Shown in pieces: positions 2,947 through 5,673 of a stretch of DNA of 34,628 bases (positions are counted from its first letter, which is position 1; each line of letters starts with the position of its first letter). Origin of the DNA: a virus. Lineage: Duplodnaviria > Heunggongvirae > Uroviricota > Caudoviricetes. Position numbers and translations under genes: made by a program. The stretch lies in the IMG/VR virus record IMGVR_UViG_2558860472_000005, positions 1-34,628 of that record; one strand, 5' to 3'. A model generated the notes under the pieces. It did no database searches and was not told the origin of the DNA. It saw nothing but the letters and a program-made list of their open reading frames with translations.

Positions 2947-3473
2947 TTGCGTAACTCCGATAACTCGTTAAAACGTTCCATAAACATCCCGTAGGCCTGG
3001 CCCGGTGCCAGTGGAATCACGTTGAACATCTCTGTTGCCGGGATGCCTTCCAGTACAGGCCAGAAAGAGCCATCATCAAGCCCGAGATCGCGGCGTTCGG
3101 TTGCCAGCATGATGAGATCGGCATATTTCACAGGCGTGCTCATAACCGGGGGTAACCCGTATTTTTCACGGATTACGGCGTCTATTTTTTCTTCCATCCG
3201 TTTATAGTCAGGAAGAAGGCGTTTCAGTGGAGCCGGGATGTCCTGGCAATACGCTTCTGTTGCATCATGCATTAACGCTTCAAAAGCAAATTCCTGCGGT
3301 ACCAGCTGGCTGCAAAGCACCGCATGTTGGGCGACGCTGTAGAAGTGTGAAAGATGTCCTGCAAAGCGACAGATATTTGAAAGGGAAACCGCGATATCGT
3401 TAATAACGATGTCGTCTTTATTTATCCTGTCATAATAAAAATGCTTCCCGGAAAAAGTTTTAATAAATGACAT
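2937..3473 (-). CDS. HD-domain metal-dependent phosphohydrolase (YfbR/5-prime-deoxynucleotidase-like)
   Basis: The spacing of SVAQHAVLCS ... ALMHDATEAY ... D matches the H..HD...D metal-binding motifs of HD-superfamily hydrolases. A start at the ATG at 3473 is preferred (GGAG 8 nt upstream). The ORF track extends to a GTG at 3500. Confidence 0.6.
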   Translation of the reverse strand: MSFIKTFSGKHFYYDRINKDDIVINDIAVSLSNICRFAGHLSHFYSVAQHAVLCSQLVPQEFAFEALMHDATEAYCQDIPAPLKRLLPDYKRMEEKIDAVIREKYGLPPVMSTPVKYADLIMLATERRDLGLDDGSFWPVLEGIPATEMFNVIPLAPGQAYGMFMERFNELSELRKCA

Positions 3474-3559: not shown

Positions 3560-3900
3560 TTTCCATAAATGCCCCCGTAGGGGCGGTTAGTTTCTCCACA
3601 AAACAGAGAAGAACACCTGTGGTGGCAGCCGCCCGGATGGATTGGGTTATGAGCCCGTCGTCCGATGATGCTCTTCTCTGTTTTGTAAAAAGGACGGTAC
3701 CAGCCGGAAGCAAGGGTACAAGCTGGTACCGCCAAGACAACACACAGCATAAAGTTGTGGTGCCGGGTGCCTCCCGGTGCCTGGCGAAGGTTGTACACCA
3801 GACGGGTGGGTATCCACAGAAGGTCGACTGTCAGCCTCAACCTTAACCCGCGTGCGCTGAGCCGCATTCACCACAACGCTAAGGATTCTCTCTGGTTGAA
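3560..3900. other. GC-rich, highly structured non-coding region (candidate leader or ncRNA and left operator region)
   Basis: About 350 nt with no credible ORF; only mutually overlapping ORFs of odd composition on both strands. There is a perfect 15-bp inverted repeat, ACAAAACAGAGAAGA at 3598-3612 and TCTTCTCTGTTTTGT at 3672-3686. A 9-bp stem GGTACCAGC / GCTGGTACC lies at 3696-3730. A 5-bp hairpin GCCCC-GTA-GGGGC lies near 3571. It also contains GGTACA/GGTACC motifs that match the OR operator half-sites. Confidence 0.3.
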
Positions 3901-3957
3901 AATACTTAGCTGTTATGTGCCTGCTTTTAGCCACATCAGGCGAGGTGGACCTGGTTA

Positions 3958-3990
3958 TTCCCCAACAACAAGGATTCGGTATAATCTGGA
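3958..3990 (+). promoter_or_regulatory. Candidate sigma70 promoter of the micropeptide/2TM operon
   Basis: Perfect -10 hexamer TATAAT at 3980-3985 with a weak -35 (TTCCCC). It is flanked by direct repeats CCCAACAACAAGG (3961-3973) and CCCAACAACAGG (3994-4005), which could be a regulator binding site. Confidence 0.3.
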
Positions 3991-4017
3991 TATCCCAACA
4001 ACAGGTAGGAAGGAAAT

Positions 4018-4101
4018 ATGTACGTAGATAGCAATGAAAAATTTCATGTTCCGGTAAATCAGAGACCAGCACCGATCCCTGAGCCGAAACCTGAAATGTA
4101 A
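4018..4101 (+). CDS. Proline-rich micropeptide 1 (27 aa), MYVDSNEKFHVPVNQRPAPIPEPKPEM
   Basis: Strong SD AGGAAGGA 5 nt upstream of the ATG. The stop lies 10 nt before the start of the 2TM gene. It is paralogous to peptides 2 and 3 through a shared HxPxxxRPxPxPEPKP core. Confidence 0.4.
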   Translation: MYVDSNEKFHVPVNQRPAPIPEPKPEM

Positions 4102-4111
4102 GGGAATAGAG

Positions 4112-4591
4112 ATGACTCGAGACGATCTAGCATTCGATATTCATTATTCTTTCTTTCTTGAGAAAATGAATTACACCCTTTTAAATCGGATAGACAAGAG
4201 CATAACTCTTGTTCTCATTGTCTTGGGCTTTTCTGTTTTTGCGCCATATAGCAATATGTTTATTTTTGGCGCATCTGTAGCTATTTTGTCGGTGCTTCAA
4301 TTGGTATACCAATTTGGGCAGGAAGCTGGCTTATCAAAGGAACAGATGCGACAGTATAAAAGGTTGATTGTTGAGTTTTCCTCCCTTTCTGATGACGAAC
4401 TACGCACTCGGTTTTTAAAGGTTCAAGACGCTGATAGTAATCCATGGAGATCTTTACAAGATGCTGCGTTCAAACGGACCTGTATTGCGCTGGGACGTGT
4501 TGATGAGTCAGAAATATCATTCATGCATAGCGTTATCGCATGGTTTGCTGGAGATTTGCCTCGGTCAAAAAGGTGTAATAATGACAAATAG
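4112..4591 (+). CDS. Small two-TM membrane protein (159 aa) with a cytoplasmic C-terminal domain of about 90 aa. Possible pore/effector-like protein.
   Basis: Two adjacent hydrophobic helices (ITLVLIVLGFSVFAPY and MFIFGASVAILSVLQLVY) followed by a charged helical domain. It is convergent to cI and ends at an intrinsic terminator. The architecture resembles 2TM effector modules of the SLATT type, but this is not verified. Confidence 0.5.
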   Translation: MTRDDLAFDIHYSFFLEKMNYTLLNRIDKSITLVLIVLGFSVFAPYSNMFIFGASVAILSVLQLVYQFGQEAGLSKEQMRQYKRLIVEFSSLSDDELRTRFLKVQDADSNPWRSLQDAAFKRTCIALGRVDESEISFMHSVIAWFAGDLPRSKRCNNDK

Positions 4592-4697
4592 AATTCCCAT
4601 AATCCCTAACCATGTACCTCCAAAGCCCAGACCACCATCACCAAAGTCACACAGGCTTTATGAGTATGAATTAATAATGGATTCTATATTGAGATGA
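4581..4697 (+). CDS. Proline-rich micropeptide 2 (38 aa), MTNRIPIIPNHVPPKPRPPSPKSHRLYEYELIMDSILR
   Basis: SD AAGGTG 6 nt upstream. It overlaps the last 11 nt of the 2TM gene. It shares an H-V-P-P-K-P-R-P-P-S-P motif with peptides 1 and 3. Confidence 0.35.
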   Translation: MTNRIPIIPNHVPPKPRPPSPKSHRLYEYELIMDSILR

Positions 4698-4701
4698 CCA
4701 A

Positions 4702-4791
4702 ATGAATGCATTTATATATACATGGAAAGAGGATCATATACCCTTAAAACCTCGTCCTTCACCGCCAGAACCGAAGCCAAAATCCCGTTAA
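4702..4791 (+). CDS. Proline-rich micropeptide 3 (29 aa), MNAFIYTWKEDHIPLKPRPSPPEPKPKSR
   Basis: Starts 5 nt after the peptide 2 stop. It aligns with peptide 1 over about 17 residues (HIPLKPRPSP-PEPKP versus HVPVNQRPAPIPEPKP). Many codon differences are synonymous (AGA/CGT Arg, CCG/CCC, CCA/CCT, GAG/GAA, AAA/AAG). Confidence 0.4.
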   Translation: MNAFIYTWKEDHIPLKPRPSPPEPKPKSR

Positions 4792-4822
4792 GTGTTGGGG
4801 ATCTCCAGATTGTTAAAGAGCG

Positions 4823-4848
4823 AAGCGTCCTATAGGGCGCTTTTTTGT
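4823..4848 (+). terminator. Intrinsic terminator ending the micropeptide/2TM operon
   Basis: Stem AAGCGTCC with loop TATA and partner GGGCGCTT (one G-U pair), followed by a T-run (TTTTTTGTTG). Confidence 0.6.
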
Positions 4849-4961
4849 TGCTAACGAATCATCCTGGACTTCATATGCCCCAGGCGGCTACTTCGTGGGC
4901 GTCCTGCCTGTTCGTTGTTTCGCTTGGGTACATTATGTATCTCAAAGGTACATTGTCAAGT

Positions 4962-4998: not shown

Positions 4999-5673
4999 TT
5001 AGGCTTTGATTTTGTATCTTCTTGGTTTTCCTGAGAAAATCACTGTACCAATTATAGAGCAATTACCGTTGATCTTAATGTAAGGCTCAGGCCAGTTTGG
5101 GTTTAACGCTTTGAGATAACGCTGTGTCCCATCTTCTATCAACCTTTTGAAGGTGGTTTCACCTGTATCGTGCATCAATGCAATAACGTCGTCACCGTGG
5201 CAGGCAGGTACTTCAGGATCGACAAAAATCATGTCTCCCGGGCGGTACTCATCAATCATTGAATCACCTATCACCCGCAAGATATAAGTCATTTCCCCAC
5301 AGGGTACAGGGCAGGGATACGTTTCTGCTGTGCTCAAATCAACCTCAGAATATCCAACTTCTTTCCATGCTCCGGCCTGTACCCATGATATGACAGGGAC
5401 TAATGTGATTTGTTTATTAGTGATTGAAACATCAGGTTTTTTTGTGATGTTCGTTGTCTGGTGTTCTTGATCGAGCCATCCGACAGGCAGGTCGAAACAT
5501 CTTTCGATGTGTCGTGCCATGCTGTCACCGATATTTTTAGTAGCACCATCTCCCATAAACCTGCTGGTCTGGGTTGGCTCGCGATCAATCATAGTGGCAA
5601 AGGAAGAATTCCCGCCAACACCATCTCTCAGTTTTCTGGCGTTAGACCGCCGGATGTCATGGATTGTTTTCAT
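4999..5673 (-). CDS. cI: CI-like prophage repressor with an N-terminal HTH and a C-terminal S24 (LexA-like) autopeptidase domain
   Basis: The 224-aa protein has a C-terminal GDSM...K region (RVIGDSMIDEYRPGDMIFVD ... TFKRL) typical of S24 self-cleaving repressors. It is divergent from a Cro-like gene across an operator-rich intergenic region. Its length matches e14 CohE (from memory). Confidence 0.85.
   Translation of the reverse strand: MKTIHDIRRSNARKLRDGVGGNSSFATMIDREPTQTSRFMGDGATKNIGDSMARHIERCFDLPVGWLDQEHQTTNITKKPDVSITNKQITLVPVISWVQAGAWKEVGYSEVDLSTAETYPCPVPCGEMTYILRVIGDSMIDEYRPGDMIFVDPEVPACHGDDVIALMHDTGETTFKRLIEDGTQRYLKALNPNWPEPYIKINGNCSIIGTVIFSGKPRRYKIKA

Follow-up and report, generated by a model that had tools for sequence, protein, structure and literature searches.

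Proline-rich micropeptides linked to a two-transmembrane protein in a cargo slot beside the immunity region of an SfIV/e14-like prophage

The 34,628-nt stretch of DNA analysed here in full (IMG/VR record IMGVR_UViG_2558860472_000005, positions 1 to 34,628; "the window") is an Escherichia coli prophage of the SfIV/e14/CPS-53 kind, with genes for an integrase, yfdR, the cI-like ymfK, the cro-like ymfT and ymfL. Between yfdR and the repressor gene lie four plus-strand open reading frames (ORFs). Three of them, pep1, pep2 and pep3, encode proline-rich micropeptides, and the other, between pep1 and pep2, encodes a small protein with two predicted transmembrane segments (the 2TM protein). To judge from the way their codons have changed, the small ORFs are clearly genes selected at the level of the peptide sequence. 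In IMG/VR they co-occur exclusively with this one 2TM family. The four genes together form a cargo cassette that is exchanged horizontally and occupies a fixed slot in SfIV/e14-like temperate phages, with pL/nutL on one side and the early-left genes on the other. The module probably serves as an anti-phage or membrane device, expressed in the lysogen, of a type with no earlier description.

All four ORFs are present exactly where a sequence-only reading of the window had placed them (Table 1). The annotation of the cassette by the Prokaryotic Genome Annotation Pipeline (PGAP) has the 2TM gene alone, as hypothetical protein WP_000196297.1, and none of the three peptides has a copy in a collection of 15 billion proteins. 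Members of the peptide family are annotated sporadically elsewhere, as a 33-aa Pectobacterium protein and as 38-aa and 48-aa ORFs of a Providencia phage and of phage EKP1, respectively. The exact cassette is present in 52 of 5426 complete E. coli genomes.

Table 1. Features of the cassette, its slot and the adjoining immunity region (window coordinates)
Feature	Positions	Strand	Details
Conserved 5' element of slot	3920-4014	+	Backbone; near-invariant across 16 diverse loci
Slot inverted repeat, left arm	3983-3996		AATCTGGATATCCC; 93% complementary to 4798-4811
pep1, class A (upstream) micropeptide	4018-4101	+	27 aa, MYVDSNEKFHVPVNQRPAPIPEPKPEM, net charge -1
2TM protein gene	4112-4591	+	159 aa; predicted inner-membrane protein; phrog_6315
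pep2, class B micropeptide	4581-4697	+	38 aa, MTNRIPIIPNHVPPKPRPPSPKSHRLYEYELIMDSILR, net charge +3
pep3, further downstream micropeptide	4702-4791	+	29 aa, MNAFIYTWKEDHIPLKPRPSPPEPKPKSR, net charge +3
Slot inverted repeat, right arm	4798-4811		GGGATCTCCAGATT
Bifunctional slot end	4812-4850		Plus-strand terminator-like hairpin 4822-4843, then T-run (terminator scan)
pL-like promoter, TTGACA-16-CATAAT	4932-4959	-	11/12 matches (promoter scan); just downstream of repressor gene
Repressor gene cI/ymfK	4999-5673	-	ORF list and annotation

The micropeptide family and its linkage to the 2TM gene

Homologous loci (65 from IMG/VR and 3 from genomes) were retrieved; 58 of these, plus the window, were analysed and yielded 36 distinct peptide-set variants. 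Proline-rich small ORFs flank the 2TM gene in every one of the 58 related prophage loci. The upstream ORF ends 7-21 nt ahead of the 2TM ATG in 35 of the 36 variants, the sole exception being L067 (L numbers designate individual loci), where it is reduced to a 14-codon remnant. Downstream there are one to three peptide ORFs per locus. The first, of class B, has orthologues of the form MS[KR]P..P..HVPP[KR]PRPP.P that start between -28 and +16 nt from the 2TM stop in almost every locus, usually with the ATG inside the 3' end of the 2TM gene and each with a Shine-Dalgarno sequence (SD); in many loci a second and third peptide follow it, built on the same core. Across the 36 variants no peptide ORF lacks a start codon of its own, which is ATG with two exceptions, and an SD precedes nearly all of them.

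The window itself is equally compact. The 2TM ATG follows the pep1 stop codon at a distance of 10 nt, the pep2 ATG falls within the last codons of the 2TM gene in the +1 frame, pep3 starts 5 nt beyond the pep2 stop, and the pep3 stop (4791) is 7 nt short of the right arm of an inverted repeat that is taken up below. The SDs that the sequence-only reading had called strong are indeed present at pep1 (AGGAAGGA) and pep2 (AAGGTG), and that of pep3 is weak (GAG). Such close spacing or overlap of the peptide ORFs with the 2TM gene suggests translational coupling. At the 3' end of pep1 and its equivalents (e.g. in L076 and L084), the codons of an acidic tail (GAC GAG GAG TAA; AAG GAA GAT) form the SD of the 2TM gene.

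The peptides are paralogous, hydrophilic and putatively cytoplasmic, 21-38 aa in length, and share the core H-Φ-P-(P)-[K/R]-[P/Q]-R-P-P-x-P, of which pep2 carries H-V-P-x-x-x-R-P-P-x-P. The shared core had already been noticed from the sequence, and it holds; the agreement between pep1 and pep3, put then at about 12 of 17 positions, comes to 10 identical and 3 conservative positions of 17, with one gap, when the translated sequences are aligned. In a search of the whole 34.6-kb window in six frames, the pattern H[VILMA]P...[RK]P.P was met at pep1 and pep3 only, and it arose in none of 5000 shuffles of the cassette region. Net charge separates the classes: pep2, pep3 and class B generally are at +3 to +4, and the upstream, class A peptides at -3 to 0 in most lineages. 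Motifs of the APP, PPP or PPE type are found in many copies, and most copies have consecutive prolines, but the window pep1 and the corresponding peptide of Salmonella prophage Fels-2 have none, and the suggestion that polyproline stalling would be a conserved feature of the family has to be given up.

The codons of the core have turned over freely beneath a constant peptide. Among 63 distinct core DNAs, the invariant prolines P3, P8 and P11 use all four proline codons, R7 all six arginine codons and the histidine both of its codons. The ratio of nonsynonymous to synonymous substitution rates (dN/dS) is 0.00-0.17 for most orthologous peptide pairs, often with dS above 1, and is low over whole peptides, N-termini included; one pair stands higher, at 0.29, and two pairs of low divergence are at 0.62. 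Among the pep1 orthologues the range is likewise 0.00-0.17, apart from one exception of low divergence. The synonymous codon turnover and dN/dS bear out the earlier proposal of selection on the peptide sequence.

When IMG/VR was scanned with a degenerate DNA pattern for H-[VIM]-P-P-x-P-R-P-P, 51 loci matched, and 40 of them are 2TM cassettes; the remaining 11 matches are off-frame, on contigs of 54-73% GC. As a small ORF away from the 2TM family the motif was not met in that scan, where it turned up only in such chance off-frame matches. In three Pectobacterium assemblies the C-terminus of the 2TM protein is naturally fused in frame to the class B peptide (…LPTEKESK-MAKPPVDGHIPPRPRPPAPPKAQN), with the internal SD and ATG kept. 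Peptide-peptide fusions also exist, with two cores in one ORF (class B and a further copy), in L002, L056, L066 and L027; an N-terminal fusion of the upstream peptide to the 2TM protein was searched for and none was found. Taken together, the coupling geometry and the natural fusions indicate a physical or functional link between the peptides and the 2TM protein.

The peptide-2TM-peptide arrangement that the earlier reading had drawn from this one window recurs in dozens of related prophages, and the upstream peptide with the 2TM gene recurs in distant phages. There the 2TM homologues are about 30-35% identical, a coupled upstream peptide is present in six of six clades, and the downstream peptides are missing. 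The upstream peptide of Fels-2 (Salmonella LT2) is MSDSDNFHVLPRPAPAPKPEPGQDKK, closely resembling the window pep1. Elsewhere it reads …FH[IV]LHKP[AE]PPE… in Yersinia phage vB_YenM_42.18 and its IMG/VR relatives, …HMLHKHIPDD… and …SHVPRIVPPKP… in two further distant IMG/VR clades (L072 and L079, respectively), …NHLNPKPIRPTPPPP… in Providencia phage PSTNGR2lys and …TPTPPPPT… in EKP1. Because these six distant lineages keep just the upstream peptide and the 2TM protein, the ancestral two-gene core is, on this comparison, made up of those two, and the downstream basic peptides are an expansion within the SfIV-like Enterobacterales clade.

Two of the distant loci deserve a separate word. In the Fels-2 record (L137, NC_010463.1) the 2TM homologue (152 aa) and the peptide upstream of it (26 aa), at 2387-2935 on the plus strand, are unannotated, and a minus-strand ORF, STM2733.1, which is probably spurious, is annotated over the same DNA. 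In EKP1 (L140, OM284015.1) the 4.4-kb module region has 50% GC, which seems high for the listed host, Elizabethkingia, and holds lysis and antitermination genes of lambdoid type.

The cargo slot and its orientation

The 5' element, the inverted repeat and the terminator that surround the four genes belong, to judge from their distribution, to the phage backbone and not to the operon, because phages with unrelated cargos share them. SfIV, PhiR29, Kati and others share the window's DNA up to about position 4003 and again from about 4805, with an unrelated gene between, such as SfIV gp36; about 980 further E. coli genomes share the right-hand end only and have other hypothetical cargos. In the comparison that bears on the slot end, about 1000 E. 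coli genomes and SfIV matched at query positions 836-903 only.

The 5' element stays near-invariant in its 16 loci, over which the identity of the encoded proteins drops to 53%. Its parts are CCTGC...CAGGC (3920-3942), CCCCAACAACA-AGGA (3960-3974), TATAAT (3980-3985) and TCCCAACAACAGGTAGGAAGGA (3993-4014), the GGA tract of the last being the SD of pep1. The direct repeat CCCCAACAACA-(n)-AGGA is present in two copies about 33 nt apart (3960-3974 and 3993-4014), and in L019 and L040 CAACAACA has become CAACAGTCA in both of them. Within the first copy lies ACAAGGAU, which we take to be the core of the CsrA consensus from systematic evolution of ligands by exponential enrichment, and CsrA or another factor may control the slot. 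A structured motif in the 5' untranslated region (5'-UTR) is not supported: RNAalifold gives -3.45 kcal/mol, with essentially no plus-strand covariation.

Two of the signals that the sequence-only reading had assigned to the operon are real and have other owners. The TATAAT hexamer is there, at 3980-3985, but it lies in the backbone slot and not in the operon itself; it arises from a lineage-specific 1-nt insertion (relatives have GTTAAT). The hairpin with its T-run is likewise present, but it is shared with unrelated cargos and is not the operon's own terminator. The 14-15-bp inverted repeat brackets the slot irrespective of the cargo: L084, L019 and L062 have it too, as does SfIV on either side of gp36 (L071), and in L019 it carries a compensatory change (ATACCCC/GGGGTAT). 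Its arms could let the 5'-UTR pair with the mRNA 3' end, or they could be sites of recombination or protein binding in the exchange of cargos.

At the slot's right-hand end, the minus strand reads the same hairpin followed by CGCTCTTTAACAA (4824-4812), a 12/13 match to an rrn-type boxA; an exact GCTCTTTAA lies on that strand at 4813-4821, though this 9-mer alone is within chance. Hairpin and boxA on the minus strand look like a nutL site, and the cassette terminator would then double as the early-left antitermination site. The strong pL-like promoter lies just beyond the repressor terminator, with GGTACA-type operator-like repeats there and at pR, and the early lytic transcript from pL should run antisense through the cassette.

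In all the loci compared the cassette is convergent with a cI-type repressor gene, although the repressors are of widely varied immunity (26-99% identity) and the same repressor is found with different cassette variants. Likewise, the lytic genes beside the module run on the other strand in Fels-2, in the Yersinia and Providencia phages and in EKP1. It is chiefly because this antisense, convergent geometry recurs that we infer expression of the cassette in the lysogen and its silencing during the phage's own lytic growth. The cassette also has the marks of a moron: a terminator, an orientation independent of the lytic operons, and a presence/absence polymorphism with other cargos in the slot. 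The position beside the immunity genes that the sequence-only reading described is upheld: it is moron-like, convergent to the repressor gene and, as found here, opposed in direction to the early lytic transcript. The AT-rich composition is upheld as well, with a GC fraction of about 0.40-0.43 in the cassette region versus 0.45-0.56 to the left.

Several further observations concern the slot and its left-hand side. In L062 the 32-nt start of the 5' element (TGCCTGTCTTTTCACCACATCAGGCTC.GTGG, 1963-1994) is repeated at 3018-3049, just downstream of the cassette, which suggests that two cargo slots may stand in tandem. Immediately left of the slot, on the minus strand of the window at 3684-3907, there is a full-length but sub-threshold match to the STnc100 model (RF02076) at 39.6 bits versus a gathering score of 47 (E=1e-6). 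STnc100 has been tied to the PasD prophage small RNAs (sRNAs) in a 2026 preprint. In E. coli GE3 (L001, 2978-5394) an ISEc23 element (IS66 family) sits between yfdR and the sRNA/cargo-slot region, the cassette being otherwise 100% identical, and the PGAP annotation has a pseudogene, "frameshifted hypothetical protein", on the STnc100-like stretch, which may be a misannotation of an RNA. In Rfam scans the module overlaps no known sRNA at the Fels-2, Yersinia or Providencia locus.

The 2TM protein and a possible mode of action

The 2TM protein matches phrog_6315 over residues 2-151 (profile positions 3-152 of 152; E=2.8e-51). This PHROG entry covers its full length, but it gives no function and does not include the micropeptides. 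The protein has no Pfam family, no PADLOC family and no informative relative in the PDB. It has 78 close homologues in Enterobacterales, in Escherichia, Salmonella, Klebsiella, Enterobacter, Citrobacter, Cronobacter, Leclercia, Pectobacterium, Brenneria and Sodalis, and the family as a whole comprises 255 clusters at 50% identity. The hydrophobic segments are at about residues 30-47 and 50-68, with hydropathy peaks centred at 36-44 and 56-60. An AlphaFold2 (AF2) model, with a predicted local distance difference test (pLDDT) score of 80, shows a long helical hairpin (H3-43 / H50-87) followed by three short helices, and the hydrophobic segments form its tip. From the flanking basic residues both termini should be cytoplasmic.

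The nearest parallel is with the SLATT (SMODS/SLOG-associated 2TM) effectors, which are partners of CBASS-like, RT/DRT and TIR systems. The 2TM protein resembles them in its size of about 150 aa, its two-transmembrane hairpin flanked by cytoplasmic helices and its carriage on mobile elements, and a few of its relatives are named SLATT in UniRef. Weak matches to SLATT_5, SLATT_4 and DUF4231 point the same way, the best among 30 close relatives being Pfam SLATT_5 at E=0.034 (one member), NCBIfam SLATT_5 at E=5e-4 (two) and SLATT_4 at E=0.06 (three). Unlike SLATT effectors, the family has no hidden Markov model (HMM) match at threshold, the window protein itself matches no SLATT profile, and the conserved partners are micropeptides only. 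No nucleotide-making or nucleotide-sensing partner (SMODS, SLOG, TIR or reverse transcriptase) stands beside the module; its neighbours are the repressor gene, the sRNA-like region and early phage genes, and in the distant phages ordinary lytic genes on the other strand. We describe the protein as SLATT-like in architecture and as no more than a candidate member of that group. The small pore-forming effector proposed from the sequence remains plausible: the hairpin architecture agrees with it, but its SLATT support is all below threshold.

Like lambda RexAB and lambda/P22 SieB, the module adjoins cI and pL, includes a membrane component and is presumed to be expressed in the lysogen. Unlike them, it has no sequence relation (there is no PADLOC match to RexAB), is opposite to cI and is antisense to pL; and in place of a RexA-like sensor the partner would be proline-rich peptides of 21-38 aa.

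Our preferred reading, to which we give a probability of about 0.4, is that the peptides bind and gate an oligomeric 2TM protein and that, through abortive infection or exclusion, the module protects the lysogen. There the cassette would be transcribed from a weak promoter of the slot itself, and antisense transcription from pL would silence it once the prophage goes lytic. The 2TM protein would form oligomers in the inner membrane, its two termini facing the cytoplasm, and the peptides would act as polyproline-II ligands of its cytoplasmic helical domain, at a roughly fixed stoichiometry, gating or restraining it in the manner of an antitoxin or a subunit. An infecting phage would upset this balance, and the membrane would then be permeabilised or DNA entry blocked, leading to abortive infection or superinfection exclusion.

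Several results weigh against gating and protection of this sort. Neither the 2TM protein nor any of the three peptides has a match in PADLOC-DB 2.0 at E<=1. In Pfam and NCBIfam scans the SLATT, DUF4231 and TIGR04402 HMM matches of the 30 close relatives were all below threshold, and none of 60 distant relatives matched SLATT. The AF2 model of the Pectobacterium 2TM-peptide fusion leaves the proline-rich tail undocked, at an uninformative pLDDT of 45-62. In part, conservation of the acidic C-terminus in the upstream peptide may reflect the SD of the 2TM gene, which its GA-rich codons form, and not the peptide. The promoter is weak and ill-defined, with no good -35 for the TATAAT and no call there in the promoter scan. 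Finally, the alternative cargos WP_000559922, WP_000500990, WP_000357060 and SfIV gp36 have no Pfam or PADLOC family, and the slot is for this reason not provable as a defence hotspot. The role in exclusion or abortive infection assigned by the sequence-only reading is plausible to this extent: the position favours it, while a PADLOC match is lacking and the slot's other cargos are unassigned.

Two lysis functions that might be thought of for a proline-rich peptide or a small membrane protein were rejected. A spanin with an Rz1-like proline-rich lipoprotein is contradicted by the lack of a lipobox or signal peptide and by a position outside the lysis cassette, and a holin would be in the wrong location.

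Competing explanations and implications

The module might have nothing to do with defence and serve lysogenic conversion or host physiology (envelope, ion homeostasis or stress tolerance), or be an addiction module of toxin-antitoxin type. A moron position and lysogen-side orientation would be equally expected of such a device, no known defence family is matched, and a labile-looking small peptide encoded upstream of a potentially toxic membrane protein has the gene order of a toxin-antitoxin pair. Nothing specific speaks against it; we consider it unlikely, though by no means far-fetched, on the prior that variable immunity-adjacent cargo antisense to lytic transcription is often anti-phage. 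Lambda rexAB, sieB and BTP1 bstA are anti-phage cargo beside immunity regions.

The small ORFs could alternatively act in cis. Slow translation of proline-rich codons, dependent on elongation factor P (EF-P) or arrest-like, would set re-initiation on the 2TM gene, and the downstream ORFs would serve mRNA stability, Rho access or pairing between the 5' and 3' arms of the inverted repeat, the released peptides being without function. In favour of this, and in part shared with leader or arrest peptides, are a tiny upstream ORF whose stop, 7-21 nt before the 2TM ATG, falls in or beside the ribosome-binding site of a membrane-protein gene, acidic-tail codons that double as the SD, PP(P), PPE or APP in many copies, and a pep3 stop 7 nt from the right inverted-repeat arm. 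Against this, consecutive prolines are not universal, being absent from the window pep1 and the Fels-2 peptide, and histidine, a hydrophobic residue and arginine are conserved besides proline while synonymous change is free. The dN/dS is low across whole peptides, N-termini included, the downstream paralogues have no gene to regulate, and the in-frame Pectobacterium fusion argues that the peptide acts as a protein. Unlike EF-P leaders, SecM, ApdA/ApdP and TnaC, the family has downstream paralogues and one fused copy; the features of SecM and ApdA were looked for in the peptides, and there is no RAPP or RAGP motif and no N-terminal secretion, transmembrane or force-sensing segment. A purely cis-acting role is quite unlikely in our estimation.

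In a third explanation the peptides are themselves the effectors, analogues of the proline-rich antimicrobial peptides (PrAMPs) that act on the ribosomal exit tunnel and peptidyl transferase center or on DnaK, and the 2TM protein is an immunity factor, anchor or release factor. Translation would be shut down during superinfection, or non-lysogens would be killed after release. The peptides do resemble apidaecin, oncocin and Bac7 in being short, unstructured, rich in PRP/PRPP and, in the basic classes, cationic, with an aromatic-or-His plus hydrophobic pair ahead. The apidaecin core is Y-I-P-Q-P-R-P-P-H-P and that of oncocin Y-L-P-R-P-R-P-P, and the family core in the form [H]-Φ-P-(P)-[K/R]-P-R-P-P-x-P resembles both; H-V-P-P-K-P-R-P-P repeats the oncocin pattern with one residue inserted. 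Apidaecin (Api) variants are active at net charges of +2 to +4, a range that takes in class B at +3 to +4, and Api-like peptides inhibit when made inside E. coli (PMC11347161). The Api pharmacophore, P11-R12-P-P-H-P-R17-L18-COOH, has essentially invariant R17 and L18 at a free C-terminus (PMC11347161), and here the likeness fails. The R17-L18 pair is absent, anything from 2 to 23 residues stand between PRPP and the C-terminus, the best case ends …PRPPAPKG-COOH (L019-L023), and the window pep2 runs 18 residues past PRPPSP. The sequence-only reading's comparison with apidaecin action is not sustained. Moreover, both PrAMP cores lack the inserted residue, the upstream peptide taken as ancestral has a negative or neutral net charge, outside the active range, a constitutive translation inhibitor would be costly for a lysogen, and the 2TM fusion would tether its peptide to the membrane. 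The micropeptides, finally, differ from PrAMPs in being encoded by a phage and made within the bacterial cell. We regard this explanation as very unlikely.

An origin of the small ORFs by chance, from the decay of a larger proline-rich gene or from repeat DNA, for which their small size and missing annotation might speak, is ruled out for practical purposes by the codon turnover and low dN/dS, by starts and SDs kept in 36 variants and in distant phages, and by the absence of any DNA repeat joining the peptide copies; the decayed gene, which the earlier reading had itself raised, thus falls to conservation and purifying selection.

We return, then, to gating of the 2TM protein by its peptides as the reading we prefer. 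What is new is the set of conserved His/Pro-rich micropeptide partners; a prophage moron with a small membrane effector is of an already known kind, and no paper on the peptide-2TM module was found in the literature. A bolder proposal is that the peptides are a new class of phage polyproline-II micropeptides, either dedicated cytoplasmic ligands that gate a phage-borne membrane pore, as the tunable lock of a suicide or exclusion channel, or intracellular PrAMP-like binders of the ribosome or DnaK. We hold it doubtful; if true, either version would amount to a new effector-regulator principle in phage-phage conflict and to natural intracellular proline-rich inhibitors.

The immediate significance is that widespread, strongly selected and essentially unannotated micropeptide genes exist in prophages of E. 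coli, Salmonella (including Fels-2 of LT2), Klebsiella, Enterobacter, Pectobacterium and others. The system is about 0.8 kb in size, belongs to genetically tractable hosts and is directly testable, and the slot's 5' element, inverted repeat and terminator/boxA offer a handle for finding further cargos. If the peptides act on the ribosome or on chaperones, phages would have evolved PrAMP-like molecules independently; if they gate a membrane effector, they would represent a new sensor/regulator logic in prophage immunity, with proteins of 21-38 aa as key components.

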